IMG/VR virus record: IMGVR_UViG_3300031963_000042
Location: 39,209-103,208 of that record
From: a virus
Lineage: Duplodnaviria > Caudoviricetes
Length of the DNA: 64,000 nt
Reading direction: 5' to 3' (one strand)
Shown piece by piece: positions 10,376 to 24,024 of this stretch. The stretch's first letter is position 1. Each line of letters starts with the position of its first letter. Made by a program: the position numbers and the translations under genes. The notes beneath the pieces are model-generated. The model was not told where the DNA came from. It worked only from the letters and a program-made list of their open reading frames with translations, and did no database searches.

Positions 10376-11356
10376 ATGAAAAAATCAATTCATGACATAA
10401 AAAAAGATTTTTTGTTGTATACAAACTATGATACAAGAAAAACTTTACGTGAAAATATTGAGTTAGTTAGCGAGCAAGAAGAAGGTGGTGCTATTCCAAC
10501 ATATGAACCAAGATCTGTAAGAAATACTAATATTAGAGTAAATAGTGAAGGCGAAAATGATCCTAATGGTGAATTTACAGTTAAAATAGTTAGAACTCCT
10601 TCCGGACAAGACATTGCTTTAATATTCGACAATAATAACAAGCCTCAAGGATATTACAGAGGTGGTGGGTCAGTTAACCCTGCAACACCAGAAAATGTTA
10701 AAAACACAATTAACTATTTATATAGTTGGTTTAATCAATGCAAGTCAAAAGATGCGTTAGGTAGTAATTGGTCAAATCAAGTACAAGCAAAACTACAAAG
10801 GTTATCTGCTGAATTAACCGATATATTAGATGAAGGGCCTAAATCTGGTGTATATGATACAGATGCTCTAATTGGTTTTTTAGGTAACTTTAGCAATTTT
10901 GATGAATTGTGCCTTTTTAACCTTTTTTACGGTTCTTTAGATAATAAATCTAAATTTTTAGCACAACTATCTGATTTCTATTATAGAAATCCTGGTGATA
11001 AAAAATTTAGAGAGGTATTAAACATAATATCTAGATTGGCATCAGAACAATCAAATACTCCAAGTACACCTGGTGGCGGAACACCAGGTGGGGGAGGAAC
11101 ACCAGGTGGTTCAGGATACGTTAATTGCCCAGGTCCTGAGTATAGATTTGGTTGCATTAGTCCTGCAATTTCAAAAATTCAATCTTGTGCTGGATTACCT
11201 AGAGACGACAAATTTGGACCATCTACTTTAGATTATGTTAAGAGAACATTAGGAAAGGAAACATTTGATACAAACACTGACCTGAATAAACTATGTCCTA
11301 ACGGGGTTCCTAACACACCTCCGCCAGGGGCTTACGACGAAGTTAACGAAAGATAA
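10376..11356 (+). CDS. Hypothetical protein with GT/PG-rich linker and peptidoglycan-binding-like C-terminus
   Basis: TPGGG repeats, then IQSCAGLPRDDKFGPST (DGxFGPxT-like). Confidence 0.55.
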   Translation: MKKSIHDIKKDFLLYTNYDTRKTLRENIELVSEQEEGGAIPTYEPRSVRNTNIRVNSEGENDPNGEFTVKIVRTPSGQDIALIFDNNNKPQGYYRGGGSVNPATPENVKNTINYLYSWFNQCKSKDALGSNWSNQVQAKLQRLSAELTDILDEGPKSGVYDTDALIGFLGNFSNFDELCLFNLFYGSLDNKSKFLAQLSDFYYRNPGDKKFREVLNIISRLASEQSNTPSTPGGGTPGGGGTPGGSGYVNCPGPEYRFGCISPAISKIQSCAGLPRDDKFGPSTLDYVKRTLGKETFDTNTDLNKLCPNGVPNTPPPGAYDEVNER

Positions 11357-11380
11357 TTAAAATATATAAAATTTCATCTT

Positions 11381-12517
11381 ATGAGAGAAAAGTTTGAAAA
11401 AAAAATAATAAATGAGCAAGGAACTGGTCTGTCACTGCCTAATCCTATTACTATGGCAGACTTAGTTGCGAATAATTCATGTAAATTTACTACCGGATTG
11501 CAGCCGACTGATACCGGAACTTATTGGCTAGCTATAGCCGATGTTGATCGTCCGGATCGAAAACCGCCAGTAAAAAGAGGTGATTATTATGTTGTTTCTG
11601 ATGATTTTGAATTTGTAAACGGAACACCTAAAGGGACTTATGCTTTATTTAGATATGGTAGTTATGTTCCTGGTACGTATGATAAAAACACTGGTAAATA
11701 TCTATTAAGATGGACTTGTGAAAATTATCAACCACCAACGAATTTAATTTCAGCTGGAAATCTAACTCCAGCTCAAAAAGAATGGATAAATAATAGTAGA
11801 TACCTTAAACAGGGATATAGCTTGAGTGCAAATACGCAGGAAGGTTGTATAACTACACCATTTGACGAAAAATTATGTGACAGAGTTGATTTAGCTGAAA
11901 AAGCACCTGACGTTTTTTTTAAAAAAGGCGTATATTACTTATATAAATCTAAAACCGCTCTTAATCAACAGCAAAAAGAACAACAAGCACAAATTATTAA
12001 CTCTTATAAGTCATTAAGTGGTTGTACTGATGTAGTCCCACCAGCTACTCAAATTAACCAATATTATCAAGTAAGATTATCTCAAATTCCTGAGTTTCGT
12101 AATTTATTTGACTCAAATTTTGTAATGTATTGTCCTTATTCAGCAATAACTAAAGGAAATAGAGCATCAGTTATTGACGGTATTAAAAATAAATTAAACA
12201 TGTCAAGTGTTACGGATGATTGTCAATTTGCTATGACTGTTATTTATGATGGGTTATACAAACGTAAAAATCAATATTCAAGGCAGTTAGATCTTCAAGA
12301 AATAACTTATTTAAAAAATGTTTTAAAACAGTGTGCTACAGCTAGGGATGAAAGAGGTAGAGCCTTTAATTTTAAATACAAAAATAATTACCAAGAATTA
12401 GTTAGGCTAAATAAAGATAATCCTGCATCACTAGCAGAAAGTAAAACAAAAGATTTAACAACTATAATTAGAGAACAACTAGTTGAAGCTTATAATAGGA
12501 AGAATAGAAGATATTAA
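11381..12517 (+). CDS. Hypothetical Cys-containing virion-associated protein
   Basis: IINE leader; ORF track. Confidence 0.6.
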   Translation: MREKFEKKIINEQGTGLSLPNPITMADLVANNSCKFTTGLQPTDTGTYWLAIADVDRPDRKPPVKRGDYYVVSDDFEFVNGTPKGTYALFRYGSYVPGTYDKNTGKYLLRWTCENYQPPTNLISAGNLTPAQKEWINNSRYLKQGYSLSANTQEGCITTPFDEKLCDRVDLAEKAPDVFFKKGVYYLYKSKTALNQQQKEQQAQIINSYKSLSGCTDVVPPATQINQYYQVRLSQIPEFRNLFDSNFVMYCPYSAITKGNRASVIDGIKNKLNMSSVTDDCQFAMTVIYDGLYKRKNQYSRQLDLQEITYLKNVLKQCATARDERGRAFNFKYKNNYQELVRLNKDNPASLAESKTKDLTTIIREQLVEAYNRKNRRY

Positions 12518-12576
12518 TAGATAATTAGGTTTAGTCACCTAATTTTATAAATGTTTTTAAAAAAAGGAGGTAATTA

Positions 12577-12616
12577 AAACAAATGGGAGGCTTATTGCCC
12601 CCCATTTGTTTTTTTT
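12577..12616. terminator. Bidirectional terminator
   Basis: AAAACAAATGGGAGGC-TTATT-GCCCCCCATTTGTTTT overlapping the clpP stop. Confidence 0.7.
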
Positions 12617-13275
12617 CGAATTACTTCGTCGATGATTCCATATTCTAGAGCTTCATCAGCAGTTAGCCATAGATCACGTTGTGCGTGTCGTTTAACTTCT
12701 TCTTTGTCTTTCGAGCAAAATTCACCAAGAAGTTCGAATAGAATTTCATTACTTCTCATCCATTCATCCATATAGATTGTTGCGTCTTGAATATTACCTC
12801 TAAATCCGGCTGATGATTGGTGTAGCATAGTCCTTGAGAACTTAAGAGATCGTCTTAGGCCCTTAGTTCCGGCACCAAGTATAACTGATCCCATAGATGC
12901 TGCAATTCCAGTATTTACGGTTGCGATATTTGAGTTAATGTACTGCATAATATCGACAATAGAAAGCCCTGACTTTACAGATCCTCCTGGGCTATCAACG
13001 TGCATTGCGATCTCTTTATTTTCGACAGAATCGAGGAACATGAGTTGTGCTTGCACTATGGTTGACATGTTATCGTCGACTTCACCTGCAACCCAAAGAA
13101 TGCGTTCTCGCATAAGTCTTGAAAAGATATCGATCTGAGTTGCTCTTAGTTCTCTTTCTTCAAGAACGTAAGGTGTTAGAGAGCTATTAATCCTTTGGGA
13201 GTAATAATCGATATGTGATGATGGTTTATACAGGTGATTTGTGTAGTAAGATGTAAATTCTTTTGTAATATCCAT
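12592..13275 (-). CDS. clpP: ATP-dependent Clp protease proteolytic subunit
   Basis: DIFSRLMRERIL, DSPGGSV, GIAASMGS (catalytic Ser), TMLHQ (His), RDLWLTADEALEYGIIDEV (Asp). Confidence 0.97.
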   Translation of the reverse strand: MDITKEFTSYYTNHLYKPSSHIDYYSQRINSSLTPYVLEERELRATQIDIFSRLMRERILWVAGEVDDNMSTIVQAQLMFLDSVENKEIAMHVDSPGGSVKSGLSIVDIMQYINSNIATVNTGIAASMGSVILGAGTKGLRRSLKFSRTMLHQSSAGFRGNIQDATIYMDEWMRSNEILFELLGEFCSKDKEEVKRHAQRDLWLTADEALEYGIIDEVIRKKTNGGQ

Positions 13276-13292
13276 AATTTATCTTGTTTGAG

Positions 13293-13374
13293 TGCGGTAA
13301 AAGGGACTCGAACCCCCACTCCTTTCGGAATATCATCCTTAGTGATACGTGTCTACCAATTTCACCACTACCGC
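13293..13374 (-). tRNA. tRNA-Leu(AAG)
   Basis: GCGGTAG/TTACCGC acceptor, Leu-type D loop GGTGAAATTGGTAGACAC, anticodon arm TATCA-CTAAGGA-TGATA, long V arm, GGTTCGAGTCC. Confidence 0.9.
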
Positions 13375-13419
13375 ATTATTTACTCAACAAGAGTATAAAT
13401 TAGTTTTTACATTGTCAAA

Positions 13420-13914
13420 TTAATATGTGAACGATTTTTTGTAGTCAATCCAGACATCTTCCATAGAATTTGTGAGGATTTCTGCAAAAATAGAAGGTTC
13501 GAATGGTTTTTTAATCATAACCATGTTAGCTTCTTTAGGTGTTCTATCTGCTTTATTAAAATTACATTTATTACAGCAAGTTACCATATTATTCCATGAG
13601 TTATCACCACCTCGTGATTTTGGTACTACGTGATCTATCGTAAGGTTTCTTTTAGACCCACAATAAACGCATTCAAAACCATCTCTTCTATATATTCGTG
13701 TTTTTGACACTTTTAAATGTTTTTTGCTGATACTTACATAATTTAGCAACCTGATAATCAGTGGCTTTATGTAAGTTCTGTATATTGAAGATATACGATC
13801 TTCAGACTCTTTAACAACTTCTGCCTTACCTTTGTGCACAAGTTTAAACCCTCTTTTTTGAGAGGTAACGTTTATTGGAGTATAATCTGCATTTAATACT
13901 AATACTTTATCCAT
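13420..13914 (-). CDS. HNH endonuclease
   Basis: VLVLNADY N-terminus; RDGFECVYCG, TIDHVVPKSRGG, CCNKCNFNK. Confidence 0.9.
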   Translation of the reverse strand: MDKVLVLNADYTPINVTSQKRGFKLVHKGKAEVVKESEDRISSIYRTYIKPLIIRLLNYVSISKKHLKVSKTRIYRRDGFECVYCGSKRNLTIDHVVPKSRGGDNSWNNMVTCCNKCNFNKADRTPKEANMVMIKKPFEPSIFAEILTNSMEDVWIDYKKSFTY

Positions 13915-14073
13915 ATATAATTATTAATTAATTATTTTAATTATAATAATATTATTATTATATATATTTAATATATAAATATATTATCTAAATAATAATA
14001 CTAGATATTTTTTCTATCGGCAAGTAGTTTTGTTGTTTTTTTTTAAAATAAAAATATTTATAATAAAAAAGTT

Positions 14074-14820
14074 ATGAACAAAAGTTATAGTAAAATAAGG
14101 CATATTAAAGAAGCTAATATGCAAATCGAGCAAAAATTCTTAAATGAAGGTCAATCAGTTATTAATGGCGGTAAAGTTGGGAGAATAGATGAAGCTTTTA
14201 TTCCTATTCCTGAAGAACCAAGGGAAGTAATAGCTGATAAATTATTAAAGAAAATTATAGATAAAAATATTTATTTTATACACAACTTATTACATAAGTT
14301 GAGGTATGAAAAATTTTACTTAAAAAGTAAAAAGTCTATTGTAAAAAAAATCATAGATTTTTCTGGTAGTGGTAAATATAGTTTAGTGACATATTCTGAT
14401 CTTCTTAGGAATCTAATACAAGTAGCTCCGTATTATAAATCAAGTATTGACCCTATACTTACAGATATTAAATCTGTAATGGAGGACCTTAACAAGTTTG
14501 ATTATAGCGATAATTCAAATGTTTATATCGCAACAGTAACTTTATATAATTTATTTGAACGTATCGATGCTAAGTTTGACATTTTTTTCAAATCGCCGAA
14601 AAAAAGATCTTCTACGCTAGATAGGCCATATAGGTCATACGGGTCACATACAAATTCAGGCAAAAAAAAGGATGACGATGATGACTTTAAATTCCCTACT
14701 TTTGATCCAAATATTTTTGGTGGTGGCCCTGGTGGCGGTAGTTTTGGTGGTGGGGACTTTGGTGGCGGTAGTTTTGGTGGTGGGGACTTTGGTGGCGGAG
14801 GTGCAGGTGGTGATTGGTAA
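14074..14820 (+). CDS. Hypothetical protein with Gly-rich tail ending GGGGAGGDW
   Basis: ORF track; tail resembles TPM/YgcG-family C-termini. Confidence 0.7.
   Translation: MNKSYSKIRHIKEANMQIEQKFLNEGQSVINGGKVGRIDEAFIPIPEEPREVIADKLLKKIIDKNIYFIHNLLHKLRYEKFYLKSKKSIVKKIIDFSGSGKYSLVTYSDLLRNLIQVAPYYKSSIDPILTDIKSVMEDLNKFDYSDNSNVYIATVTLYNLFERIDAKFDIFFKSPKKRSSTLDRPYRSYGSHTNSGKKKDDDDDFKFPTFDPNIFGGGPGGGSFGGGDFGGGSFGGGDFGGGGAGGDW
14731..14790 (+). repeat. Perfect 30-bp tandem duplication (GGGSFGGGDF x2)
   Basis: ggtggcggtagttttggtggtggggacttt twice. Confidence 0.95.
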
Positions 14821-14838
14821 AAAATACTTTAAAAAATA

Positions 14839-14871
14839 TTTGGACTTTTGAATTGTATTATCGTATCTTTG
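14839..14871 (+). promoter_or_regulatory. Bacteroidota primary-sigma promoter (-33 TTTG / -7 TATCTTTG)
   Basis: 21-nt spacer, directly before tRNA-Glu; similar -7 elements at 15949, 16089, 16841, 18917, 22754, 27551 (+) and 33108-33115 (-). Confidence 0.8.
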
Positions 14872-14890
14872 CAGTGTCATTAAATGAAAT

Positions 14891-14963
14891 GTCGGGTTCG
14901 TATAGTTGGTTAGTACATAGCCCTTTCAAGGCTAAAACGCGGGTTCGAACCCCGTACCCGATA
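14891..14963 (+). tRNA. tRNA-Glu(TTC)
   Basis: TAGCC-CTTTCAA-GGCTA; GGTTCGAACCC. Confidence 0.92.
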
Positions 14964-14970
14964 CTTAATT

Positions 14971-15042
14971 GCCTCCATAGTTAAACGGATATAACGAGAC
15001 TCTTCTAAAGTCTAATTGGTGGTTCGATTCCATCTGGGGGTA
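14971..15042 (+). tRNA. tRNA-Arg(TCT)
   Basis: AGACT-CTTCTAA-AGTCT; GGTTCGATTCC. Confidence 0.9.
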
Positions 15043-15054
15043 CAAAAACATCTT

Positions 15055-15315
15055 ATGTTAAGAACATTTATTGTATTAGGACTGATTGTCACTTTGTTTT
15101 GGGGTTTTATTTCTGATAACAAATCTTCACAAATAAGTTATAGTAAAGAAACCATAGTAGATGTTGATACGGTGCAAGTTGTTAATAACGTTTTACCTAA
15201 TCTAACAAAATTTGCCTATAAAACAAACAATGGGTCATATTTTGTTTTGAACTCTTGCCGATATTCTGTGGGGGATAAAATAAAAATAACAAATATAACT
15301 TATTATGAAAAATAA
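15055..15315 (+). CDS. Small protein with N-terminal TM/signal segment
   Basis: MLRTFIVLGLIVTLFWGFIS; start moved out of the tRNA. Confidence 0.55.
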   Translation: MLRTFIVLGLIVTLFWGFISDNKSSQISYSKETIVDVDTVQVVNNVLPNLTKFAYKTNNGSYFVLNSCRYSVGDKIKITNITYYEK

Positions 15316-15388
15316 AGTTTTTTTTGCTTATCCGGAAGACGATGAGGATGATTATCCGGAAGATCCTGGTGATATTATTAGTTTTTAA
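15305..15388 (+). CDS. 27-aa acidic micropeptide (not in ORF track)
   Basis: MKNKVFFAYPEDDEDDYPEDPGDIISF*, overlaps the upstream stop, precedes the 15397-15425 hairpin. Confidence 0.4.
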   Translation: MKNKVFFAYPEDDEDDYPEDPGDIISF

Positions 15389-15427
15389 CTAAAAAAATAA
15401 AGGCTGGATAAACTCCAGCCTTTATAA

Positions 15428-15619
15428 TTAACCCTCAACAGGCTGATCTGCTTTTTTCTTAGAGATGAAAGACCATACTAAACCCGCGATTGAAACAAGG
15501 GCTGATGTTACCTCTAAGAATAGAGACTCATCAAGAACACCTTTGGCTACTAAGTAGCCACCAACAAAAGTTAATACGTGTCTAACGATACCTAAAAATT
15601 GATCTCTAGTCATTCCCAT
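15428..15619 (-). CDS. Small two-TM holin-like membrane protein
   Basis: LGIVRHVLTFVGGYLVAKG...LVSIAGLVWSFISKK. Confidence 0.55.
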   Translation of the reverse strand: MGMTRDQFLGIVRHVLTFVGGYLVAKGVLDESLFLEVTSALVSIAGLVWSFISKKKADQPVEG

Positions 15620-15735
15620 TTTTAACAAAATTTAAAAAAAAAGTTTATTTATTATTACCTATAAATATCTTTTTTTAGAAAAAAAATTGACTTATTATAA
15701 ACTTTTTACTAACATTGAGATATATATAAGATATT

Positions 15736-15813
15736 ATGAACTTTAACTTATTTAAACATACGCAAGATTCTAACCCGGCGATTAGCTGGTTTGCATCGTT
15801 ATTTATTAAATAA
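15736..15813 (+). CDS. Putative 25-aa leader peptide of an attenuator
   Basis: MNFNLFKHTQDSNPAISWFASLFIK*; stop abuts a segment complementary to the downstream terminator. Confidence 0.55.
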   Translation: MNFNLFKHTQDSNPAISWFASLFIK

Positions 15814-15847
15814 GTTCAGGTTATTTATATAATTTTATAGATATAAT

Positions 15848-15878
15848 AAAAACCCTGGACTAAAATCCGGGGTTTTTT
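15848..15878 (+). terminator. Intrinsic terminator, putative attenuator hairpin
   Basis: AAAAACCCTGGA-CTAAAA-TCCGGGGTTTTTT. Confidence 0.8.
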
Positions 15879-15890
15879 GTTCTTTGACAT
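15879..15890 (+). promoter_or_regulatory. boxA-like antitermination element
   Basis: GTTCTTTGACAT resembles rrn boxA (GYTCTTTRAMA), upstream of the tRNA array. Confidence 0.6.
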
Positions 15891-15969
15891 ATTGGATAGT
15901 TAATTAAAAAAAATATTGCTCACTTGTTGCGAATATGAAAAATACTCGTACCTTTGCAGAGCAAATAAT

Positions 15970-16042
15970 TACTCAGTGGTGTAAAGGCTAACATTTCAGA
16001 ATTTGAATCTGAAGATTGTAGGTTCGAGTCCTACCTGAGTAA
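15970..16042 (+). tRNA. tRNA-Gln(TTG)
   Basis: TCAGA-ATTTGAA-TCTGA; TACTCAG/CTGAGTA. Confidence 0.9.
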
Positions 16043-16243
16043 CGAAAAAAAAATAAAAAAACTTCTTGCTCAATTCGAAATAAGTTTATATCTTTGCAGT
16101 GTCAATCGTTAACCACTAAAAATGAAAAAAAATGCTAAACTTTATCTTGTTTCTTATCGCATTGAATTTGGTTGTATGTGGTTCGGTTCTCCTCATATCA
16201 AAGGATGTTGAAAACAAAAGAAGTATTTAATCCTTTATAACAT

Positions 16244-16317
16244 GGTTTTATTGGTGTTATCGGCTAGCACAGGAGTTTGTGGATCTCCAAGATCGAGTTC
16301 GAATCTCGAATAAAGCC
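16244..16317 (+). tRNA. tRNA-His(GTG)
   Basis: G-1:C73; GGAGT-TTGTGGA-TCTCC. Confidence 0.88.
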
Positions 16318-16329
16318 CAGGTTGATTAG

Positions 16330-16409
16330 GCCCCCTTTAGGCAGTTTATTTGATACTTTATTGATAGCGTAGTAGTTCTGATTATTTATTTCATAGCCTT
16401 AAAGGGGGC
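16330..16409 (+). ncRNA. Putative non-tRNA stem-loop RNA A in the tRNA array
   Basis: GCCCCCTTTAGGC...GCCTTAAAGGGGGC terminal stem closing about 53 nt. Confidence 0.4.
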
Positions 16410-16428
16410 ATTTTTAAAAACAACATTA

Positions 16429-16500
16429 CCCTCATTAGCAAACAGGTGTAGGCAGTAGACTTTTAATCTACGGGGGCAGGATCGATACCTGCATGGGGGA
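16429..16500 (+). tRNA. tRNA-Lys(TTT), atypical T loop ATCGATA
   Basis: GTAGA-CTTTTAA-TCTAC; GCAGG-ATCGATA-CCTGC. Confidence 0.85.
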
Positions 16501-16511
16501 CAATAAAATAC

Positions 16512-16586
16512 AGGCTAATAACTCAGTTGGTTTAGAGTGCTTATTTTACACGTAAGTGGTCGCAAGTTCGAATCTTGCTTAGCCTA
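16512..16586 (+). tRNA. tRNA-Val(TAC)
   Basis: CTTAT-TTTACAC-GTAAG. Confidence 0.9.
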
Positions 16587-16602
16587 CAAAAAATAATTTA
16601 AT

Positions 16603-16809
16603 ATGCAAAAATGTAAATATGATTCATGTTATAAGGGCTACTGTGGAGAACCGGTTGTTAAAGGTGAGGAATATTGCAAAGAGCATCTAGGTAAAAAATG
16701 CTGGAAATGCGATAAACAAGCAATAGGGGATTGCAATAAATTTGACGGTTCATATATATGTGGTTCTCCAATGTGTCAAGATCATAAACATGGTGATCAT
16801 AATATTTAA
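16603..16809 (+). CDS. Cys/His-rich small zinc-binding protein
   Basis: 9 Cys in 68 aa, YCKEH and CQDH motifs. Confidence 0.65.
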   Translation: MQKCKYDSCYKGYCGEPVVKGEEYCKEHLGKKCWKCDKQAIGDCNKFDGSYICGSPMCQDHKHGDHNI

Positions 16810-16860
16810 AAATTAATTTGAATAATACAAAAAAAGGTTATACCTTTGCAGAGCAAACAA

Positions 16861-16933
16861 GGTGACTAAGCTAACTAGGTAGAAGCGTAAGTCTGAAAAA
16901 CTTAAGGAGCCGGTTCGATACCGGCAGTCACCA
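16861..16933 (+). tRNA. tRNA-Phe(GAA)
   Basis: TAAGT-CTGAAAA-ACTTA. Confidence 0.88.
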
Positions 16934-16946
16934 CTAAACAACAAAC

Positions 16947-17156
16947 ATGAAAAATAACCAAACAAACGAGCAATTGCTGTCAGAGATCGACAAAAAGTAC
17001 AAAGTACTGTATGAAACAGTATTTAGTATTCTTTCAGATACTGTTGCAGCTGATTACGAAGGTAAGGATGATGATGTGAATATTATGTTCAATATCAGAT
17101 CTCTTGTTGGTCAACTCTCTCTATACGAGAGATATTATCCTGAAATGTTGTTTTAA
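16947..17156 (+). CDS. Small hypothetical protein
   Basis: ORF track, A-rich upstream. Confidence 0.6.
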   Translation: MKNNQTNEQLLSEIDKKYKVLYETVFSILSDTVAADYEGKDDDVNIMFNIRSLVGQLSLYERYYPEMLF

Positions 17157-17158
17157 TT

Positions 17159-17245
17159 GGAAGAGGCCCGGCATGGACGAGGACACTGTCTTGAAAACAG
17201 CTGGTCGGTAACACCGATTCGTGAGTTCGATTCTCATCTCTTCCG
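17159..17245 (+). tRNA. tRNA-Ser(TGA)
   Basis: ACTGT-CTTGAAA-ACAGC; long V arm; G73. Confidence 0.85.
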
Positions 17246-17313
17246 CTTGAGATATCTATTCTTTAGATAGATAAGTAGATTTAGAGTATTATTTAATTCT
17301 TTTTGTATTAAAT

Positions 17314-17367
17314 CACGTAAGGGGGGTAGTTTATTGTAATATTAGCCCTACCCCCCATTGCGTGCCA
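17314..17367 (+). ncRNA. Putative hairpin/minihelix RNA B ending in CCA
   Basis: CACGTAA-GGGGGGTAG...CTACCCCCC-A-TTGCGTG-CCA. Confidence 0.45.
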
Positions 17368-17373
17368 AAAAAT

Positions 17374-17446
17374 TGCCCCGTAGTTTAACGGATTAGAATA
17401 TATCACTACGAATGATAAGGTCTGGGTTCGATTCCTGGTGGGGCAA
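17374..17446 (+). tRNA. tRNA-Arg(ACG)
   Basis: TATCA-CTACGAA-TGATA. Confidence 0.9.
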
Positions 17447-17453
17447 CATCGAA

Positions 17454-17539
17454 GGAGAGTAAAATAAGGAGGTCCTTGTCGCCGTTTGCTAAACGGATGG
17501 TACCTTAACAGGTATGTGCATCATGCGCACTGCTCTCCG
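17454..17539 (+). tRNA. tRNA-Ser(GCT), non-canonical D and T loops
   Basis: GCCGT-TTGCTAA-ACGGA; V arm TACC..GGTA; T arm GTGC-ATCATGC-GCAC; GGAGAGT/GCTCTCC-G. Confidence 0.75.
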
Positions 17540-17550
17540 CTCACTAATAT

Positions 17551-17620
17551 GGGCCAGATTCCGAAGGCAGGAGGCTTCACTTGCAATGAAGCTATTTGGG
17601 TTCGATTCCCACTGTGTCCA
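17551..17620 (+). tRNA. tRNA-Ala(TGC), bulged acceptor stem
   Basis: CTTCA-CTTGCAA-TGAAG; G3:U70; A73. Confidence 0.75.
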
Positions 17621-17628
17621 CACAATAC

Positions 17629-17701
17629 TGGGGTGTATATCAGATGGTAGATTTCTTGGTTTGGGACCAAGAGGCCGCCGGTTCGAGCCCGGCTACCCCA
17701 A
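17629..17701 (+). tRNA. tRNA-Pro(TGG)
   Basis: CTTGG-TTTGGGA-CCAAG. Confidence 0.9.
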
Positions 17702-17711
17702 CAATTTTAAT

Positions 17712-17783
17712 CGGTATATAGTTCAGTGGTAGAACACTTCTCTCATAAGGAAGATGTCATTGGTTCGATTCCATTTATACCGA
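17712..17783 (+). tRNA. tRNA-CAT (Met or lysidine-Ile2)
   Basis: CTTCT-CTCATAA-GGAAG. Confidence 0.88.
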
Positions 17784-17800
17784 CAATAATCCAACAATAT

Positions 17801-17874
17801 TGGCATGTATTTCAGCTGGTTAGAATATCTCTCTGATAAGGAGAAGGTCGCCGGTTCAAGTCCGGCCATGCCAA
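17801..17874 (+). tRNA. tRNA-Ile(GAT)
   Basis: TCTCT-CTGATAA-GGAGA. Confidence 0.9.
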
Positions 17875-17888
17875 CATAAAATTTTTAT

Positions 17889-17959
17889 GGCCTGATGTCA
17901 GAGTGTTTATGTGAACGATTGCAAACCGTTCTAGGTTGGTTAGATTCCAACTCAGGCCT
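17889..17959 (+). tRNA. tRNA-Cys(GCA)
   Basis: AACGA-TTGCAAA-CCGTT; U73; T loop TTAGATT. Confidence 0.85.
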
Positions 17960-17968
17960 CAATTTAAC

Positions 17969-18042
17969 GTGCTCGTGGTGTTAATGGAATAGCATGGTAG
18001 TCTCCAAAACTATTGGTCTTGGTTCGAATCCAAGCGGGTGCG
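17969..18042 (+). tRNA. tRNA-Trp(CCA)
   Basis: GTAGT-CTCCAAA-ACTAT. Confidence 0.9.
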
Positions 18043-18051
18043 CAATTAGAA

Positions 18052-18134
18052 TGGTAGGTAGCCTAGTGGCCTAAGGCAATTGACTGTTAATCAATCGAGG
18101 AAACTCATCGAGGGTTCGAATCCCTCCCTACCAG
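18052..18134 (+). tRNA. tRNA-Asn(GTT) with long variable arm
   Basis: ATTGA-CTGTTAA-TCAAT followed by GAG-GAAA-CTC V-arm hairpin; G73. Confidence 0.88.
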
Positions 18135-18146
18135 CAACAACTACAT

Positions 18147-18231
18147 TCCGATGTCGCATAGCGGTTGATTGCACCTGACTTGTAATCAGGCCCTCTCACG
18201 AGGCACGCCAGTTCGAATCTGGCCATCGGAT
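18147..18231 (+). tRNA. tRNA-Thr(TGT) with long variable arm
   Basis: CCTGA-CTTGTAA-TCAGG followed by CCTC-TCAC-GAGG V-arm hairpin. Confidence 0.85.
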
Positions 18232-18243
18232 CTTAATTAACAT

Positions 18244-18316
18244 GGTCTATTGGTGTTAATGGCTAACATACTGCACTGTCTATGCTGAGCTCTCGGTTCG
18301 AATCCGTGATAGACCG
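18244..18316 (+). tRNA. tRNA-Asp(GTC)
   Basis: CTGCA-CTGTCTA-TGCTG; G73. Confidence 0.85.
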
Positions 18317-18328
18317 CTTAATAATACT

Positions 18329-18399
18329 GCGGATATAGTATAGTGGTATTACACTAGATTGCCAATCTAGTGACGTCAGTTCGATTCTGGTTATCCGCA
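18329..18399 (+). tRNA. tRNA-Gly(GCC)
   Basis: CTAGA-TTGCCAA-TCTAG. Confidence 0.9.
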
Positions 18400-18410
18400 C
18401 ATAATAAATT

Positions 18411-18481
18411 GCGGATATCGTATAGTGGTAATATACTAGTCTTCCAAACTAATGCTGCCAGTTCGATTCTGGCTATCCGCA
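18411..18481 (+). tRNA. tRNA-Gly(TCC)
   Basis: TAGT-CTTCCAA-ACTA; near-duplicate of the upstream Gly gene. Confidence 0.9.
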
Positions 18482-18503
18482 CACAAAAATAATCTAATTA
18501 ACT

Positions 18504-18731
18504 ATGTCTAATATATCAAACAAAGGCCCATATACTAATTTTACAGAGTATTATCCTAATTATCCTCCTAACAATAATTATATACCCTTAGGTTGGCAAT
18601 GTCCGATATGTAAAACAGTTTATTCTCCTAATGTTTTATCATGCCACAAGCATGAAGATATTCAAAAAAATATAACATCATCTAGTACAGATACTGTTAA
18701 GGTAAATGATCATGAAAAACGTATTCTATAA
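18504..18731 (+). CDS. Small zinc-ribbon protein
   Basis: GWQCPICKTVYSP...SCH. Confidence 0.65.
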   Translation: MSNISNKGPYTNFTEYYPNYPPNNNYIPLGWQCPICKTVYSPNVLSCHKHEDIQKNITSSSTDTVKVNDHEKRIL

Positions 18732-18742
18732 TATAATAAATT

Positions 18743-18916
18743 ATGTATTACCTAATACTGTTATTCCCAATACTAATATTTGTTTTGGTTTTAATAGCAA
18801 TATGTTTTTATTTGGCATATTTGTATATAGCATTTACTTTGTTTTTTAATATAATTTTTGGTTTTATTTTTTTTATTTATATTGTTATAAAGCTTTTCTA
18901 TTTGGCAAAAAAGTAA
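18743..18916 (+). CDS. Possible 57-aa highly hydrophobic membrane peptide (not in ORF track)
   Basis: MYYLILLFPILIFVLVLIAICFYLAYLYIAFTLFFNIIFGFIFFIYIVIKLFYLAKK*; may be an artefact of T-richness. Confidence 0.35.
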   Translation: MYYLILLFPILIFVLVLIAICFYLAYLYIAFTLFFNIIFGFIFFIYIVIKLFYLAKK

Positions 18917-18935
18917 TATCTTTGTATCACAAACT

Positions 18936-19019
18936 GGCCCGGTGGTGGAACAGGTAGACACGAGGGACTTAAAATCCCTTGGCCTTGCGGTCGTGCGGGT
19001 TCGATTCCCGTCTGGGCTA
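18936..19019 (+). tRNA. tRNA-Leu(TAA)
   Basis: AGGGA-CTTAAAA-TCCCT; long V arm. Confidence 0.93.
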
Positions 19020-19054
19020 CAATTTTGAGCCTCTTTGATATATTTATTGTTATT

Positions 19055-20242
19055 ATGGACAATAGATTAATCAAAGAGGCTCTTGGCGTTAGGCCTGAGT
19101 TGCTTGAAATTGCCAAGCAACTATATGCGGATATACTCTCAACTTTGAGTATACTTGATCCATCGACTAGTATCTTTTTTTTAGATAAAAAAGCATTTTT
19201 TTTAAACTTAAAAAACAATATTTTTTCTCTAAAAAAACTAAGTATTGGTTTTTCAATTAACCAAATAGGTTATAATCGCCTTGATATAATCAATTTTCAA
19301 ACTCAGATTCCAGGATCATTAGTAAATGATAGAATTATTTACTCCGATGGCTATAATAGTTATATCCTAATAAGGATAAACGCAGCTAGATATATGAGAG
19401 TATATGACCTCATGCATCATTTTAAGGAAGAAAAGGCGTTAATTGTTTCATCGTTATCTCACGAATTAAAACATTTTTTTGACTATTTAATTCAGAAATC
19501 AACTAAAACATCAAATGCTTATAAAGCAGAGGTTTATCGTCAATTATCTAGTGAGGAAAACAGAGTTAGTCAAATTATTAGTAATGGATGGTATCTCACG
19601 TCCATTAACGAACTCATAGTTGCACCAACTCATTTATATGCCGAACTGAGGTCTATGAATGTAACAAAGAAAACATTTTTAGAAGATTTAAAAAATAGTG
19701 ATGTAATAAAAAAATATCAAAATATCGCCAAGGATTTTTATTATGACCAAATTTATAGAAGAATTTTTGTCAGAATATCGGCAAGTATGGGGGATTCAGA
19801 TTTTAAGAATTCTACTTTCGATGAAAGTAAAAAATATGTTGAGGGAGGGATTACAAATCTTAACGAGTTGATTTCATTTGCTACCGAACTAACATTTTAT
19901 GAAGCCAGAAAAAATTTTTACAAATCAATATTAAATCAAATACTTAGCAATAATTCTAAGAATAATTTACCATTAGCTAATTTAACGCAAGAAAATATTG
20001 ACGATCCTAAAGCGTTATTATCATATCATAATATTTCTAAGACTGATTATTATTCAGAACCTGAATTTTCCTTGAAAGATTCCCCAGGCAAAAACAAACT
20101 TTTTTTTACACGTGAAATTAATAAAATAAGAGAGAGAGCAAATAATATTTTAATAAAGTTGTATAAAATATATTCATTATTGCCTGATCGTAAACCCCCT
20201 AATGTTAGCGGGAGTTATAAAAAGAAAATAAAAAATAATTAA
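19055..20242 (+). CDS. HExxH zinc-metalloprotease-like paralog 1
   Basis: LSHELKH, downstream Y.TSI.EL; LIKEALG leader; start moved to ATG 19055. Confidence 0.7.
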   Translation: MDNRLIKEALGVRPELLEIAKQLYADILSTLSILDPSTSIFFLDKKAFFLNLKNNIFSLKKLSIGFSINQIGYNRLDIINFQTQIPGSLVNDRIIYSDGYNSYILIRINAARYMRVYDLMHHFKEEKALIVSSLSHELKHFFDYLIQKSTKTSNAYKAEVYRQLSSEENRVSQIISNGWYLTSINELIVAPTHLYAELRSMNVTKKTFLEDLKNSDVIKKYQNIAKDFYYDQIYRRIFVRISASMGDSDFKNSTFDESKKYVEGGITNLNELISFATELTFYEARKNFYKSILNQILSNNSKNNLPLANLTQENIDDPKALLSYHNISKTDYYSEPEFSLKDSPGKNKLFFTREINKIRERANNILIKLYKIYSLLPDRKPPNVSGSYKKKIKNN

Positions 20243-20271
20243 TTATATAGTGACTAAGATATTTATTCTTT

Positions 20272-21447
20272 ATGAAGAATAAATTAATCAAAGAGGCTCT
20301 TGGCGTTAGGCCTGAATTATTTAAATTAGCACAGATCGTTTATACGGAAGTGCTCTCTTATTTGAGAGCTAATAAAGATATACTGATAGGTAAGAATCCG
20401 GAACATTCAATCAATGTTAAAATTGGTAATTTTCCTTTGATGTTAGCTTTTAAAGATAAAGCAGAATTCATTTTAGATTATATTAAAGAAATTGAAGTCG
20501 AACTTAGGTTCATCTATACTAAAGATGAGAGCCCTGAAATAAAAACCGCAGCATTTAGTATTCCGTATGTTAGTGTACGTGATTATTATATTTCTAAACA
20601 TAAGGCTAAGCCTGTTATTGAATTTAGAGTAACAGGTAAAAAAAATATAAAATTTTCACAGATAGCAGATTTTTTAGTTGAAAAAGAGCCTAAAATAATT
20701 ACTCTATTAGCCCACGAGCTAAAGCATATGTATGATGCTTTAATTGGTCATAAAAGATATCCTGCCAATGATGTAAGTTATGCTGCTAGTGTTAAACCAG
20801 TATTTAATAAAGACATTATTGAATATGGTAAAAAAATAGCTGAAGCTGCGTATTACACAAGTATCGTAGAGTTACACATTAGAGCTACTGAGATTTATGC
20901 TTATTTAATGTCAAGATCAATCACTAAAAAAGAATTTTTAAATGAATTAAGCGAATTATCAATCATATTGAGATATAAAGGGTATATAAAAACTTTTGAT
21001 TATGATTTATTCATTGCTCAAATCTTTCAAGATTTGGCAAAATCTAACAATAATAGATCTTTATATCATATGACCGAAAAAGTATTTAACGTTAAAAATC
21101 CTAGCATAGATACAGTGAAATATGTTGGAGTTGAATACATATTATATTTAATTCGGAAAGATTACTTTAAAAATGTGTCAAATATTAGTAAAAATATATT
21201 TCCTTTTTATAATTTTATTTCTTTCTGGAAAAAATTTGGCTTTTTTAAAAAAGAGCAAAATGTCAATCCTAAAGATATTATTAATAAATTAAGTGTTGGC
21301 AATTATTATAACGAACCTAAATTTACTAAAGAAAGTATAAAGAGAAACAGTTTTTTTTTCAAAAAAATGTTTAAAACGATAAGATACAGATCTCATAATA
21401 TTTTAAGAAAATTGTATAAAGTTTACTCATTATTACCTGACAGGTAA
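20272..21447 (+). CDS. HExxH zinc-metalloprotease-like paralog 2
   Basis: LAHELKH; shared N- and C-terminal motifs. Confidence 0.7.
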   Translation: MKNKLIKEALGVRPELFKLAQIVYTEVLSYLRANKDILIGKNPEHSINVKIGNFPLMLAFKDKAEFILDYIKEIEVELRFIYTKDESPEIKTAAFSIPYVSVRDYYISKHKAKPVIEFRVTGKKNIKFSQIADFLVEKEPKIITLLAHELKHMYDALIGHKRYPANDVSYAASVKPVFNKDIIEYGKKIAEAAYYTSIVELHIRATEIYAYLMSRSITKKEFLNELSELSIILRYKGYIKTFDYDLFIAQIFQDLAKSNNNRSLYHMTEKVFNVKNPSIDTVKYVGVEYILYLIRKDYFKNVSNISKNIFPFYNFISFWKKFGFFKKEQNVNPKDIINKLSVGNYYNEPKFTKESIKRNSFFFKKMFKTIRYRSHNILRKLYKVYSLLPDR

Positions 21448-21513
21448 CAGCCTTTTTATAGCTTCCGCTATAAAAAAAAGGTGATTTTTAATTATATAGC
21501 ATATTTATTTGTT

Positions 21514-22713
21514 ATGAAAAACAAATTAATCAAAGAGGCTCTAGGCGTTAGAGAAGAATTGTTTAATGCCGCAAAATTAATTTATTCTGAAATAATTCAG
21601 AAATTAAACCTAATTGGCTTACATAAAAATGTAACCGAATTAGAAAATTCGGTATTAAGATTAGATTTAAAATCTAATATTAATTATCTACAAAAAATAG
21701 ATGTTTATTTTGATATAAAATATCATGATAAAGATACTATAGATATCATTGGTCTTGTTGCTCGAATGTCGACATCACTTAAAAATGATAGAGTTCACTA
21801 TTCAACTAGTGATACAGCAAATTTAGTAATAGAATTAGAGTCTAATCGCAGCAAAGAAATTGATGATGTTGTCAAAAATTTACAAACCAATTCAAATTTA
21901 TATGTACCATCAATAGCTCACGAATTAAAACATTTTTTTGATAATACAACTGAAAGATCAAATAATCTTAAAAGACGATTAAAATATAAAGCTTATCTTG
22001 ATTTAAGTAATAACTCTAACACAATTACTCAAATTGTTGCTGATGCTTGGTATCGTACATCTATTGATGAATTGTTAGTAATTCCAACCGAAATATATTC
22101 AGAATTAAAGTATATGAATATAACAAAAAAAAATTTTTTAGATGCATTAAAAAATTCTAAATATATTGTTATATATAAAGACTATATCGATAATCTTTAC
22201 TACGATAAAATATATAACACAACACTTAAACAAGTCCTGGAATCTTTTGAAGAAGACCCACAGACTAAATATCAAGTGTTTGAGCGTAGCAAAAAATATG
22301 TAGATCAAGGGATATCTAATAACTATACTTTAGCCTTATTTTTAACAGAACTCTTATTCTATAGAACCAGAGCTTCGTTTTATGATGAAATACGAAATGG
22401 AATAATTAGAAAGTATGAGCCGTTAGATCCTATACGTGATATTGCGTTTATGCTTGGGATGATCTCAAGAAGAGATATTACTGACCCTAAAGCATTATTA
22501 CTATATAATAAGATGTCCAAAAATAATTATTACGCTGAACCAGAGTTTTCGTTTAAAGATTCACCAACGAGAAATGAGATATTTTTTGAACGTGAATTTA
22601 AAAAAATAAGGCGTAAATCGGCTAATATTCTAAAAAAGATATATAAAATATACTCATTGCTACCTAATAGGATCCCACCTCGTGTTAGTGGAAGTTATAA
22701 AAAAAAGGGTTAA
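21514..22713 (+). CDS. HExxH zinc-metalloprotease-like paralog 3
   Basis: IAHELKH; start moved to ATG 21514. Confidence 0.7.
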   Translation: MKNKLIKEALGVREELFNAAKLIYSEIIQKLNLIGLHKNVTELENSVLRLDLKSNINYLQKIDVYFDIKYHDKDTIDIIGLVARMSTSLKNDRVHYSTSDTANLVIELESNRSKEIDDVVKNLQTNSNLYVPSIAHELKHFFDNTTERSNNLKRRLKYKAYLDLSNNSNTITQIVADAWYRTSIDELLVIPTEIYSELKYMNITKKNFLDALKNSKYIVIYKDYIDNLYYDKIYNTTLKQVLESFEEDPQTKYQVFERSKKYVDQGISNNYTLALFLTELLFYRTRASFYDEIRNGIIRKYEPLDPIRDIAFMLGMISRRDITDPKALLLYNKMSKNNYYAEPEFSFKDSPTRNEIFFEREFKKIRRKSANILKKIYKIYSLLPNRIPPRVSGSYKKKG

Positions 22714-22772
22714 ATAATATGTAAACACATTTGATTGTCTGGAATAAAGATCTTACCTTTGTAGTGCAAAAC

Positions 22773-22854
22773 AGCCGGGTGGTGAAATTGGTAGACACGA
22801 AAGACTTAGAATCTTTTGGCTTATGTCATGCGGGTTCGATTCCCGTCCCGGCTA
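22773..22854 (+). tRNA. tRNA-Leu(TAG)
   Basis: AAAGA-CTTAGAA-TCTTT. Confidence 0.92.
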
Positions 22855-22863
22855 CACATACAA

Positions 22864-22937
22864 TGGCCCGTAGCTCAGCAGGTTAGAGCGTCTGACTCAT
22901 AATCAGAGGGTCGCAGGTTCAAATCCTGTCGGGCCAA
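22864..22937 (+). tRNA. tRNA-CAT (elongator Met or Ile2)
   Basis: TCTGA-CTCATAA-TCAGA; lacks the three G:C initiator pairs. Confidence 0.92.
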
Positions 22938-22987
22938 CTATAATAAATTGACTTTTCAATATATTTATTAGTTATTATATAAATGAT

Positions 22988-23716
22988 ATGAAAAGACGTT
23001 TATTTGAAAGTATTAATTTAGTTCTAAAGGAAGAAGTGTCATATCAAGACGCTATTAACACGTTTAAAAAGTATTCTGGCCGTGATGATATTGGTACGTT
23101 ACCATATGAAGATTTACGAAAAATTTATAGGGCTTTAGCTATTAAACACCATCCAGATAAAGGCGGAGATCGCCGAATATTTGCTGAAATAGCAAATGCT
23201 TATGATGTAATATTAAAAAATAAAAGTTCTAGTGGTTCTAGTGGTTATGAGACTGATGACTTCATTTCTAAAATGAAAGAAAAGCTTCGCAAAGAAAGAG
23301 AAGCTGCATATATAAGATTTCAAGAAGAAAAAGCACGCCAGGAAGCAGAAAGAAGAAAAAGGGAGGCTCAAGATAAAAAATATGAACAATCTAAAGGTAA
23401 TACAAAAACAAAGTACGGCCAAGAATTATTCGAGGAATTTCAATACAAATATCATAAAGGGTTTAAATTAAACGAGTCATTTTTAGATAGGATTATAAAT
23501 TTCTTCAATTTAAGAGGTTATGATCGAGCAGACCATGAAGCATATAACATGTTTAGGGATAATGTAAGGCGGGCTAGAGTATATTTTAAAAAGAGGTATA
23601 AAGGATATGAAGGGTTGACTGAAGATCTTATGCGAGAATATATTGATTGGTTTGATAACTATTACATGAACAACCTTAAAAACTGGAAAGAGTACTTTAA
23701 AAATAAATACAGATAA
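22988..23716 (+). CDS. J-domain protein (DnaK co-chaperone-like)
   Basis: LRKIYRALAIKHHPDKGGD...FAEIANAYDVI, then coiled coil. Confidence 0.88.
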   Translation: MKRRLFESINLVLKEEVSYQDAINTFKKYSGRDDIGTLPYEDLRKIYRALAIKHHPDKGGDRRIFAEIANAYDVILKNKSSSGSSGYETDDFISKMKEKLRKEREAAYIRFQEEKARQEAERRKREAQDKKYEQSKGNTKTKYGQELFEEFQYKYHKGFKLNESFLDRIINFFNLRGYDRADHEAYNMFRDNVRRARVYFKKRYKGYEGLTEDLMREYIDWFDNYYMNNLKNWKEYFKNKYR

Positions 23717-23761
23717 CTTCATTGATTTATTTATAAATAAATTATATGTTTTATATATAAT

Positions 23762-23840
23762 GGGTGTGCATTGGAGATCCTTGCCGGACTGTAAATTCGG
23801 TGCTTAAACGCTTAGTCGAGTTCGAATCTCACCACTCCCA
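23762..23840 (+). tRNA. tRNA-Tyr(GTA) with degenerate D arm
   Basis: CCGGA-CTGTAAA-TTCGG; GAGTTCGAATCTC; D region short and largely unpaired. Confidence 0.7.
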
Positions 23841-23860
23841 CAAAAATTTAACCTTAATAT

Positions 23861-23941
23861 GGTGGGGTACCATTGGATGCTTATATCATCTATACATGTA
23901 GCGGTAAGTTGAAAACGTGGGTTCGAATCCCTCCCCCACTA
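23861..23941 (+). ncRNA. Rearranged tRNA-like RNA with UAU anticodon loop
   Basis: GGTGGGG/CCCCACT-A acceptor, GGG-TTCGAAT-CCC T arm, GGATG-CTTATAT-CATCT arm nested in TACC/GGTA. Confidence 0.65.
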
Positions 23942-23943
23942 CA

Positions 23944-23977
23944 ATCAAAAGCCAGAATTTACATTCTGGCTTTTTTT
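23944..23977. repeat. Hairpin repeat copy 1 (terminator), left border of the sugar cassette
   Basis: ATCAAAAGCCAGAAT-TTAC-ATTCTGGCTTTTTTT. Confidence 0.9.
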
Positions 23978-24024
23978 TATTTTTAACTTTAAAAGTTACT
24001 GATAAATAGTTATTTTTATTACAT

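Follow-up and report, generated by a model that had tools for sequence, protein, structure and literature searches.

Leader-peptide attenuators control amino-acid operons (trp, his, leu, thr, ilv and pheA) as well as pheST, and in the classical examples the antiterminator works by forming first. T-box leaders, found in Gram-positive bacteria, are a terminator/antiterminator switch that reads the pool of transfer RNAs (tRNAs). In ribosomal RNA (rrn) operons, a boxB-boxA-boxC set follows the promoter and a second one precedes the 23S gene (PMC10250234). Phage tRNA genes, judging from the accessible sections of two further reports, are usually discussed by purpose, namely codon supply or escape from tRNA-cutting defences (PMC10264068, PMC11464382), and the control of their expression is rarely addressed. 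Here, we analysed a stretch of 64,000 nucleotides (nt; hereafter the window), which is the 3' 64 kb of the 103,208-base viral contig IMGVR_UViG_3300031963_000042 from IMG/VR. Our analysis indicates that the region 15687-15895 of the window is probably a ribosome-mediated transcription attenuator combined with a host-type boxA, heading the main tRNA run of a Bacteroidota phage.

With leader-peptide attenuators the locus shares a short open reading frame (ORF) between promoter and terminator, an antiterminator that shares a strand with the terminator, and a layout in which the position of the ribosome would decide the outcome. Unlike in those systems, phage tRNA genes rather than biosynthetic or synthetase genes would be regulated, most leaders (that of the window included) contain no regulatory codon run, there is no conserved 1:2 anti-antiterminator, boxA follows directly, and the host phylum does without Shine-Dalgarno sequences (1 of 81 long genes of this contig has such a core). 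The rrn boxA with its antitermination complex (NusB, NusE/S10, NusA, NusG, SuhB and S4) has the identical 17-mer and also precedes stable-RNA genes, whereas here the motif is placed between an intrinsic terminator, which it follows at once, and the tRNA genes of a phage, and Nus binding is putative. The lambda nut sites (boxA and boxB with protein N) offer an analogy, in that a phage would again use the host boxA for a termination-resistant polymerase; however, the order here is hairpin then boxA as in rrn, the hairpin is a canonical terminator, and the comparison, drawn from sequence alone, involves neither an N-like protein nor recognition of boxB. As in T-box leaders, we propose a terminator/antiterminator switch that responds to the state of the tRNA pool, but the locus has no specifier loop or T-box sequence, sensing would proceed via a ribosome at work on the leader, and it is tRNA genes that would be regulated. 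The theta ribozymes of gut phages, described in the part of the source at hand as self-cleaving and linked to suppressor tRNAs (PMC10879173), are likewise cis-acting RNAs beside phage tRNA genes, whereas the element described here would be a transcription switch.

The literature searched, with subscription journals outside its scope and its sources partly available, held no description of a leader-peptide attenuator or a boxA before phage tRNA genes. The parts are of known kinds, that is, a leader-peptide attenuator, an intrinsic terminator and a boxA. As far as our searches reach, what is new is their combination, phage tRNA arrays as the regulated genes, an rrn-type boxA in non-lambdoid Bacteroidota phages and the absent 1:2 element.

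Leader, terminator and boxA in the window

An initial model-made reading of the letters (the sequence-only reading) had proposed a leader-peptide attenuator with a boxA-like motif upstream of the tRNA array, and its individual parts could be located as described (Table 1). The 25-codon ORF using 14 different amino acids is present and starts 18 nt after the -7 box of a promoter that aligns with the TTGACA...TAnCTTTG promoters of four related leaders (L393, L107, L127 and L171). It contains one Trp codon (15787-15789) and no run of one codon, in agreement with the earlier remark. At the stop of this ORF, the segment AGTTCAGGTT (15813-15822) had been said to pair with the 5' arm of the terminator (15851-15861). 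We found this complementarity as a core of eight contiguous pairs including one G-U, with an RNAduplex energy of -11.3 kcal/mol; counted from where the stop codon begins, the upstream strand occupies +1 to +10. Of 6068 contig windows of 68 nt, 1.9% offer a duplex at least as good, as do 0.6% of 3000 mononucleotide shuffles, and comparison with 300 dinucleotide shuffles yielded p = 0.01. The terminator hairpin with its T run, also part of the sequence-only reading, alone folds at -16.3 kcal/mol, and the minimum-free-energy fold of 15720-15900 has a z-score of -4.83. Alternative folds had been named as a check: the alternative fold of 15800-15863 reaches -12.6 kcal/mol, and the terminator wins every equilibrium fold. 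The placement of the element upstream of the tRNA array holds for the main run, which begins with tRNA-Gln, but not for tRNA-Glu, tRNA-Arg and tRNA-Leu, which precede the element.

Table 1 Features of the leader unit and its surroundings, in window coordinates
Feature	Position	Strand	Details
Leader promoter	15687-15717	+	TTGACT-N17-TAACATTG; Bacteroidota-type -33/-7, one -7 mismatch
Leader ORF MNFNLFKHTQDSNPAISWFASLFIK	15736-15813	+	25 codons; stop TAA 15811-15813
Antiterminator 5' strand AAGTTCAGGT	15812-15821	+	overlaps stop codon; pairs with 15852-15861
Intrinsic terminator	15848-15878	+	hairpin 15848-15877, 12 pairs (5 G-C), loop 6, then T run
boxA GTTCTTTGACATATTGG	15879-15895	+	17-mer identical to Bacteroidota rrn 16S-23S spacer element
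Own promoter of tRNA-Gln	15924-15956	+	TTG-N19/22-TACCTTTG, between boxA and tRNA
tRNA-Gln, first of main run	starts 15970	+	74 nt after boxA
Main tRNA run (Gln to Leu-taa)	15970-19020	+	16 ARAGORN and 3 Rfam tRNA-like; small ORFs and internal promoters interspersed
tRNA-Glu and tRNA-Arg, before the leader unit	14891-15043		
tRNA-Leu, before the leader unit	13292-13374	-	
Divergent 66-aa membrane-protein gene (phrog_37382)	15428-15628	-	

The word GTTCTTTGACAT from 15879 had been called boxA-like, which understates it, since from there 17 letters in a row are those of the rrn element. The window, and indeed the 103-kb contig as a whole, contains the exact 17-mer just once, and with up to three mismatches allowed there are 2 matches versus 0.32 expected. 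With two positions degenerate, the 17-mer was found in at least 120 stretches of one-per-species GTDB genomes, nearly all of them Bacteroidota. An Rfam scan of 10 such loci placed it behind the spacer tRNAs and ahead of 23S in 8. Among the matches listed, 63 of 121 occurrences stand 14-198 nt (median 101) before 23S on the same strand, as located by BLAST with a 23S 5' end, which is where the rrn spacer boxA lies, and for 13 others the locus stops too early; the rest of the listed genome matches include a conserved coding word in non-Bacteroidota genomes. The window motif agrees at 10 of 11 positions with the consensus GYTCTTTAANA given in PMC5725501, a gamma-proteobacterial consensus. As judged by these sequence comparisons, the 17-mer of the window is a host-type boxA with a conserved 3' extension, and the Bacteroidota boxA sequence is thereby supplied together with a 6-base extension (ATATTGG) shared by hosts and phages as a conserved feature.

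Several further candidates at the locus were considered. A minus-strand ORF of 21 codons (15825-15890), overlapping terminator and boxA, was treated as spurious. The T run plus G was set aside as the -7 box of a promoter for boxA, as no consistently placed -33 element was found in the contexts inspected by eye. A permissive Rfam scan of 12000-24000 returned only tRNAs and chance-level matches at the locus; the best leader there was His_leader with 25.8 bits (gathering 49, E 0.94), which does not reach the threshold, and the other chance-level matches were PsrR1 (E 0.51) and BSnc120 on the minus strand.

Recurrence of the module in related phages

The same series of elements recurs in other IMG/VR loci. 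Homologues of the divergent 66-aa gene were found in 65 loci, of which 60 were scanned for tRNAs and 4 had opposite-strand tRNA genes. Two of these four, L014 and L015, carry promoter, an ORF of 29-30 codons, complement, terminator, T run and boxA-like motif in this order on the tRNA strand; here, GTTCGGG near the ORF end complements the terminator arm CCCGAAC, and the motif is nearly identical to that of the window (TTCTTTGA[CA]AT[AG]TTGG). A first module scan, which required TTTTTG within 20 nt before the motif and hence yielded a sample biased toward T runs, gave together with the other loci 67 distinct terminator-then-boxA contexts with at least 260 nt upstream. These fell into 24 clusters at 70% identity, with terminators and ORFs called by simple rules. 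Three of the leader families had no match among GenBank phages by BLAST.

A common feature of these contexts is the upstream complement to the 5' arm of the terminator, which reached p ≤ 0.05 in 17 of the 24 clusters (median p 0.025). The 3' arm, used as a control, did so in 3 of 24 (median 0.46), and non-redundant terminators of the same loci with no boxA downstream in 20 of 116 (median 0.48). The complement changes along with the terminator family, as exemplified by CCCGAACT/AGTTCGGG, CCCATCTC/GAGATGG and GAGCCCG/CGGGCTC, and in 18 of 22 clusters with a short ORF it ends -14 to +11 nt from the first base of the stop codon. Within the A1 family (11 sequences), 97.7% of the cells of the antiterminator helix are paired, versus 43-65% when the strands are slid, and two pairs changed on both sides, a value matched by 1 in 500 shuffles. 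This is on a par with the A1 terminator helix, which is paired to 97.5% with two such pairs (4 of 500 shuffles). Covariation of antiterminator and terminator in related phages, which the sequence-only reading had put forward as a check, is thus present both between families and within A1. Directly observed are thus the parts and how far they are conserved, the fact that the two competing helices covary, and a boxA with the same letters as the rrn element, and the structural core of the proposed geometry of ribosome-mediated attenuation finds support in this comparison.

With 100 ORFs of at least 20 amino acids in 7 kb, the leader ORF alone is weak evidence. Taking the longest ATG-ORF ending near the terminator, 22 of 24 clusters have an ORF of 19-45 codons; the medians in shuffled sequences are 2-12 codons, and the combined Fisher test of openness over the 24 clusters gives p 5e-9 (dinucleotide shuffles). 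Most related leaders start with MK and lie 10-30 nt past a TTGACA...TAnnTTTG promoter. The promoter, ATG, ACATA block, terminator and boxA of the window align with those of other leaders, and the window departs from them in the antiterminator strand placed just past the stop codon, in the -7 mismatch and in the promoter between boxA and the first tRNA.

Furthermore, the module is tied to tRNA genes by position. A same-strand tRNA lies within 1.5 kb in 64 of the 67 contexts, and in 50 of 67 the first tRNA starts no more than 30 nt after boxA. A -7 box between boxA and the first tRNA was found in only 14 of 67, the window included. A first tRNA this close to boxA leaves no room for a promoter and can therefore be transcribed only through the terminator, which makes the element an attenuator by position. 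Recurrence of this three-part module in many phages of one bacterial phylum suggests, at the level of sequence, that these phages make tRNAs according to the translation state.

The use of boxA in phages is wider than this terminator class. An unbiased IMG/VR scan with the 17-mer gave at least 115 stretches, with 103 new loci and 104 occurrences, to which the following counts refer among the matches listed. A same-strand tRNA lies within 50 nt downstream in 32 of 104 (25 of these at 6-11 nt) and within 200 nt in 48; a tRNA lies within 50 nt upstream in 19, and 14 have tRNAs on both sides. Loci with at least three same-strand tRNAs account for 55 of 104, and a -7 box lies within 45 nt upstream of boxA in 14. 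Since a strict terminator stands within 75 nt of boxA in 5 of the 104, and 12 of the at least 115 stretches are already collected loci of the terminator class, the terminator-linked boxA is a minority class made up of those 5 and most of the 12.

Two other arrangements were seen in this set (L307-L409). Between adjacent tRNAs, boxA is found 5-10 nt after one and 6-11 nt before the next, for example in L331, L342, L344, L375, L392, L396 and L399; such repeated copies within arrays may reload Nus factors after each tRNA excision. In 11 loci (L307, L318, L326, L328, L329, L339, L343, L377, L384, L389 and L401), a conserved G+C-rich structured stretch directly precedes boxA with no tRNA nearby, and at least three other repeated families also place boxA after a conserved non-coding element. 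The use of boxA in Bacteroidota phages therefore exceeds tRNA arrays.

Proposed mode of action and competing explanations

The mechanism that we infer, in which the ORF is taken to be translated, Nus factors to bind, and both the direction in which the switch works and the signal behind it are likewise deduced, would run as follows. Host RNA polymerase would initiate at the leader promoter and a ribosome would translate the 25-codon ORF. The RNA at the stop codon (15812-21) could pair with the 5' arm of the terminator and thereby block the terminator hairpin. A ribosome whose A site holds the stop codon should cover about a dozen downstream bases, here including 15812-21. A ribosome reaching the stop in step with the polymerase would thus cover this strand, so that the terminator hairpin can arise and the polymerase is released at the U run, short of boxA. 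If the ribosome lags, is stalled earlier or never loads, the antiterminator would form first, and read-through would carry the polymerase across boxA. By analogy with rrn operons, this polymerase would be loaded with NusB/S10 and partners and run through the untranslated, hairpin-rich tRNA array of about 3 kb. The net effect would be that low translation capacity results in more tRNA transcription, with internal promoters supplying a basal level. As there is no conserved 1:2 helix, the ribosome-free state is predicted to be read-through.

A number of observations weigh against this reading. The terminator is kept in the minimum-free-energy fold under every ribosome mask tried; it wins at equilibrium, and therefore the antiterminator can act only kinetically, by forming first. 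The antiterminator strand lies just past the stop codon and not inside the ORF, a layout seen in 2 of 24 clusters. The -7 box of the leader promoter (TAACATTG) is mismatched at one position, and the leader lacks a single-codon run. A consensus promoter of tRNA-Gln sits downstream of boxA, and the array of the window is therefore not dependent on read-through; moreover, transcription would reach the boxA of the window only through the terminator, and transcripts from internal promoters carry no boxA. Close relatives of the phage were not found in the searches made, and the covariation therefore comes from lineages other than that of the window. A 1:2 anti-antiterminator was rejected as a family feature, with 3 of 22 clusters at p ≤ 0.05; in the window, the long 5' hairpin of the minimum-free-energy fold sequesters the antiterminator strand, with p 0.13 as a 1:2 helix. 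At the level of the family, the 67 contexts come mostly from a pattern requiring TTTTTG before boxA, the clusters share ancestry and hence are not independent, the antiterminator stays above p = 0.05 in 7 of 24 clusters, and in the unbiased scan a strict terminator lies near boxA in only the 5 occurrences given above.

It seems unlikely to us that the leader is instead an independent small gene, either the ORF or a structured RNA of about 155 nt (15724-15880), with its own promoter and an ordinary terminator that insulates the tRNA array. The complementarity would then be functionless and boxA would serve only occasional read-through. Such an arrangement would fit with the own promoter of tRNA-Gln, with the further small ORFs inside the array, with the good folding of the leader transcript (15720-15900, see above; 5' hairpin alone z -3.3) and with some leader families that resemble real small proteins in having a hydrophobic stretch followed by an acidic tail. 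However, 11% of the 123-nt contig windows fold as well as the 5' hairpin. Moreover, the 50 of 67 contexts with a tRNA directly after boxA and no promoter place the terminator within the tRNA transcription unit, and the segment at the ORF end covaries with the terminator arm, whereas terminators lacking boxA seldom have a complement (the 20 of 116 above).

A second alternative, which we also hold to be improbable, keeps the switch but has it set by the nascent peptide or by one codon, with arrest at or after the mid-ORF Trp and possibly via a small molecule or one tRNA species. Of 22 leaders, 18 have a single Trp codon in mid-ORF, often with Cys before and Phe or Tyr after it, and TGG occurs 20 times in frame versus 11 and 11 times in the other frames. 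In 12 of the 18 Trp-bearing leaders the codon lies 20-30 nt ahead of the antiterminator strand, and it may leave room for a stall or arrest site. In addition, several clusters have the pattern K-H ... Q ... C-W-[FY] in common; the window peptide, with K-H and S-W-F, shares the K-H ... W-F pattern. Against a peptide signal, Trp is missing from four leader clusters, peptides differ widely among families, and variable sites within families show no third-position bias (by codon position 13, 14, 15; 5, 4, 9; and 4, 4, 6), which fits an ORF whose translation counts more than its peptide.

A nucleotide block, (A/G)ACATAT, also bears on this point. Roughly half of the leader ORFs have it some 16-22 nt from their start, with ACATAC at 15756-15761 in the window, and it occurs in two reading frames (xAC ATA versus CAT ATx). 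It is therefore conserved at the RNA or DNA level and not as peptide, a nucleotide-level signal that again speaks against a peptide-set switch. Possibilities for its role are a pause site or a factor site. The block resembles the 3' half of boxA. A second boxA within the leader was rejected as a whole-motif match, with 0 of 22 at p ≤ 0.05.

Chance, that is, an accidental ORF and an 8-bp complement beside a terminator with a boxA-like word in AT-rich DNA, is very improbable: although the openness of the window ORF alone reaches p 0.052 against dinucleotide shuffles, the complement is matched in the 1.9% of genome windows given above and the finding was picked by eye post hoc, no second exact copy of the 17-mer exists in the 103 kb and its letters are those of the rrn element, the same ordered module with covariation occurs in 24 clusters, and the promoter and leader blocks align with those of other members.

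Returning to the attenuator, the leaders also hold hints as to what it may sense. In the 19 contexts whose first tRNA is Asp or Glu, the leaders contain 14.3% Asp+Glu, and 8 of 19 have a run of at least three acidic codons before the antiterminator. The 38 contexts with other first tRNAs have 5.7% Asp+Glu and no acidic run (0 of 38). Permuting the labels of the first tRNA over 21 clusters yielded p 0.009, and 0.14 when the Asp-first clusters were left out; kinship confounds both values. Given this Asp/Glu-run subfamily, the idea of a general sensor, which had been derived from the window, may fail for the family as a whole. The leader of the window itself, having no codon run, fits a general read-out of translation capacity, for which translation stress or host tRNA cleavage, as put forward in the sequence-only reading, would be candidate triggers.

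Genomic setting and implications

The contig has a G+C content of about 31% and a CheckV completeness estimate of 34%, and its proteins include terminase, portal protein, major head protein and ClpP-like and AAA-protease-like proteins. Only 1 of its 81 long genes has a Shine-Dalgarno-like core, and sites of the form TTG-N19/20-TAnnTTTG precede tRNA genes in the window. We take this layout to be the Bacteroidota promoter (consensus TTG/TAnnTTTG, -33/-7). Since Shine-Dalgarno cores are missing from the long genes and the promoters are presumably of Bacteroidota type, the phage host is most likely a member of Bacteroidota. A sigma-70 scan was uninformative (57 sites versus 56.5 expected).

Relatives of the phage were sought in several ways. 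BLAST of the region and the 7.9 kb around it against GenBank phages gave matches at tRNA level or at chance level only, no relative emerged from IMG/VR when the 405-aa, 248-aa and ClpP proteins were used as queries, and the exact 30-base terminator pattern had no match in IMG/VR. A metagenome scan with ClpP returned three short contigs of different gene order and with no tRNAs. At least half of the sampled words of 12500-20500, a pointer to near-identical sequence, are present in 19 DNA sequencing runs; 4 of these may be the source, and the others belong to 11 further studies, which are labelled as fungus, freshwater, aquatic or lake-water metagenome, or with a coded organism name; one RNA run matches this region with a word share of 0.06.

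ARAGORN identified 21 tRNA genes, and Rfam adds three tRNA-like matches missed by ARAGORN: 17159-17244 with the tRNA-Sec model (38.4 bits, under threshold), and 17551-17620 and 17889-17959 with the tRNA model (31.9 and 42 bits). The caveat on internal promoters in the sequence-only reading proved justified, as TTG-N19/20-TAnnTTTG sites stand directly before five tRNAs (Glu, Gln, His, Phe and Leu). At 16066-16244, a hydrophobic ORF of 32 codons (16132-16230) and then tRNA-His come after a consensus promoter (TTGCTCA...TATCTTTGCAG); ORF and tRNA appear to be co-transcribed with no terminator between them. Just past the second tRNA group, 23861-23944 matches the tmRNA model weakly (18.2 bits, gathering 47, E 4.7e-4), and in L001 and L010 ARAGORN called tmRNA-like genes next to the homologue of the 66-aa gene. 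Between converging plus-strand small ORFs and the minus-strand 66-aa gene, 15397-15425 forms a strong hairpin that has T runs on either strand and is probably a bidirectional terminator parting the tRNA-Glu/Arg unit from the leader unit.

Outside the window, at about 10,880-16,500, about 12 paralogous genes, each of about 470 bp, stand in a tandem array on the contig, and the junctions between them are nearly the same (GGGATATTAAGGTTAAT...TTTATAGAGTATG). The word TTTATAGAGTATG before many start codons was rejected as a promoter class, as it belongs to this array. Near 26 and 368 of the contig start, on the minus strand, there are two copies of a stretch of about 56 bases at a distance of 342 bases, which may be a terminal or tandem repeat.

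The locus and its relatives point to a conserved, testable circuit consisting of a translated leader, a switchable terminator and a host rRNA antitermination signal. If it works as proposed, it would extend leader-peptide attenuation to tRNA genes and to viruses, show the borrowing of boxA for phages beyond the lambdoids, and provide a compact part for reading out translational capacity in Bacteroidota, whose promoters are unusual and which make no use of Shine-Dalgarno sequences. A bolder and decidedly tentative proposal, which we consider possible although rather doubtful, is that Bacteroidota phages run their tRNA genes under ribosome-read feedback, such that the leader ORF tests for a shortage of the tRNAs encoded downstream, codon-specifically in the Asp/Glu subfamily, and passing polymerases are handed via boxA to the rRNA antitermination machinery. 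If true, this would be a class of attenuator that senses the very molecule whose synthesis it controls, a tRNA, and the phage would refill its tRNAs on demand, for example after cleavage by a host anticodon nuclease.

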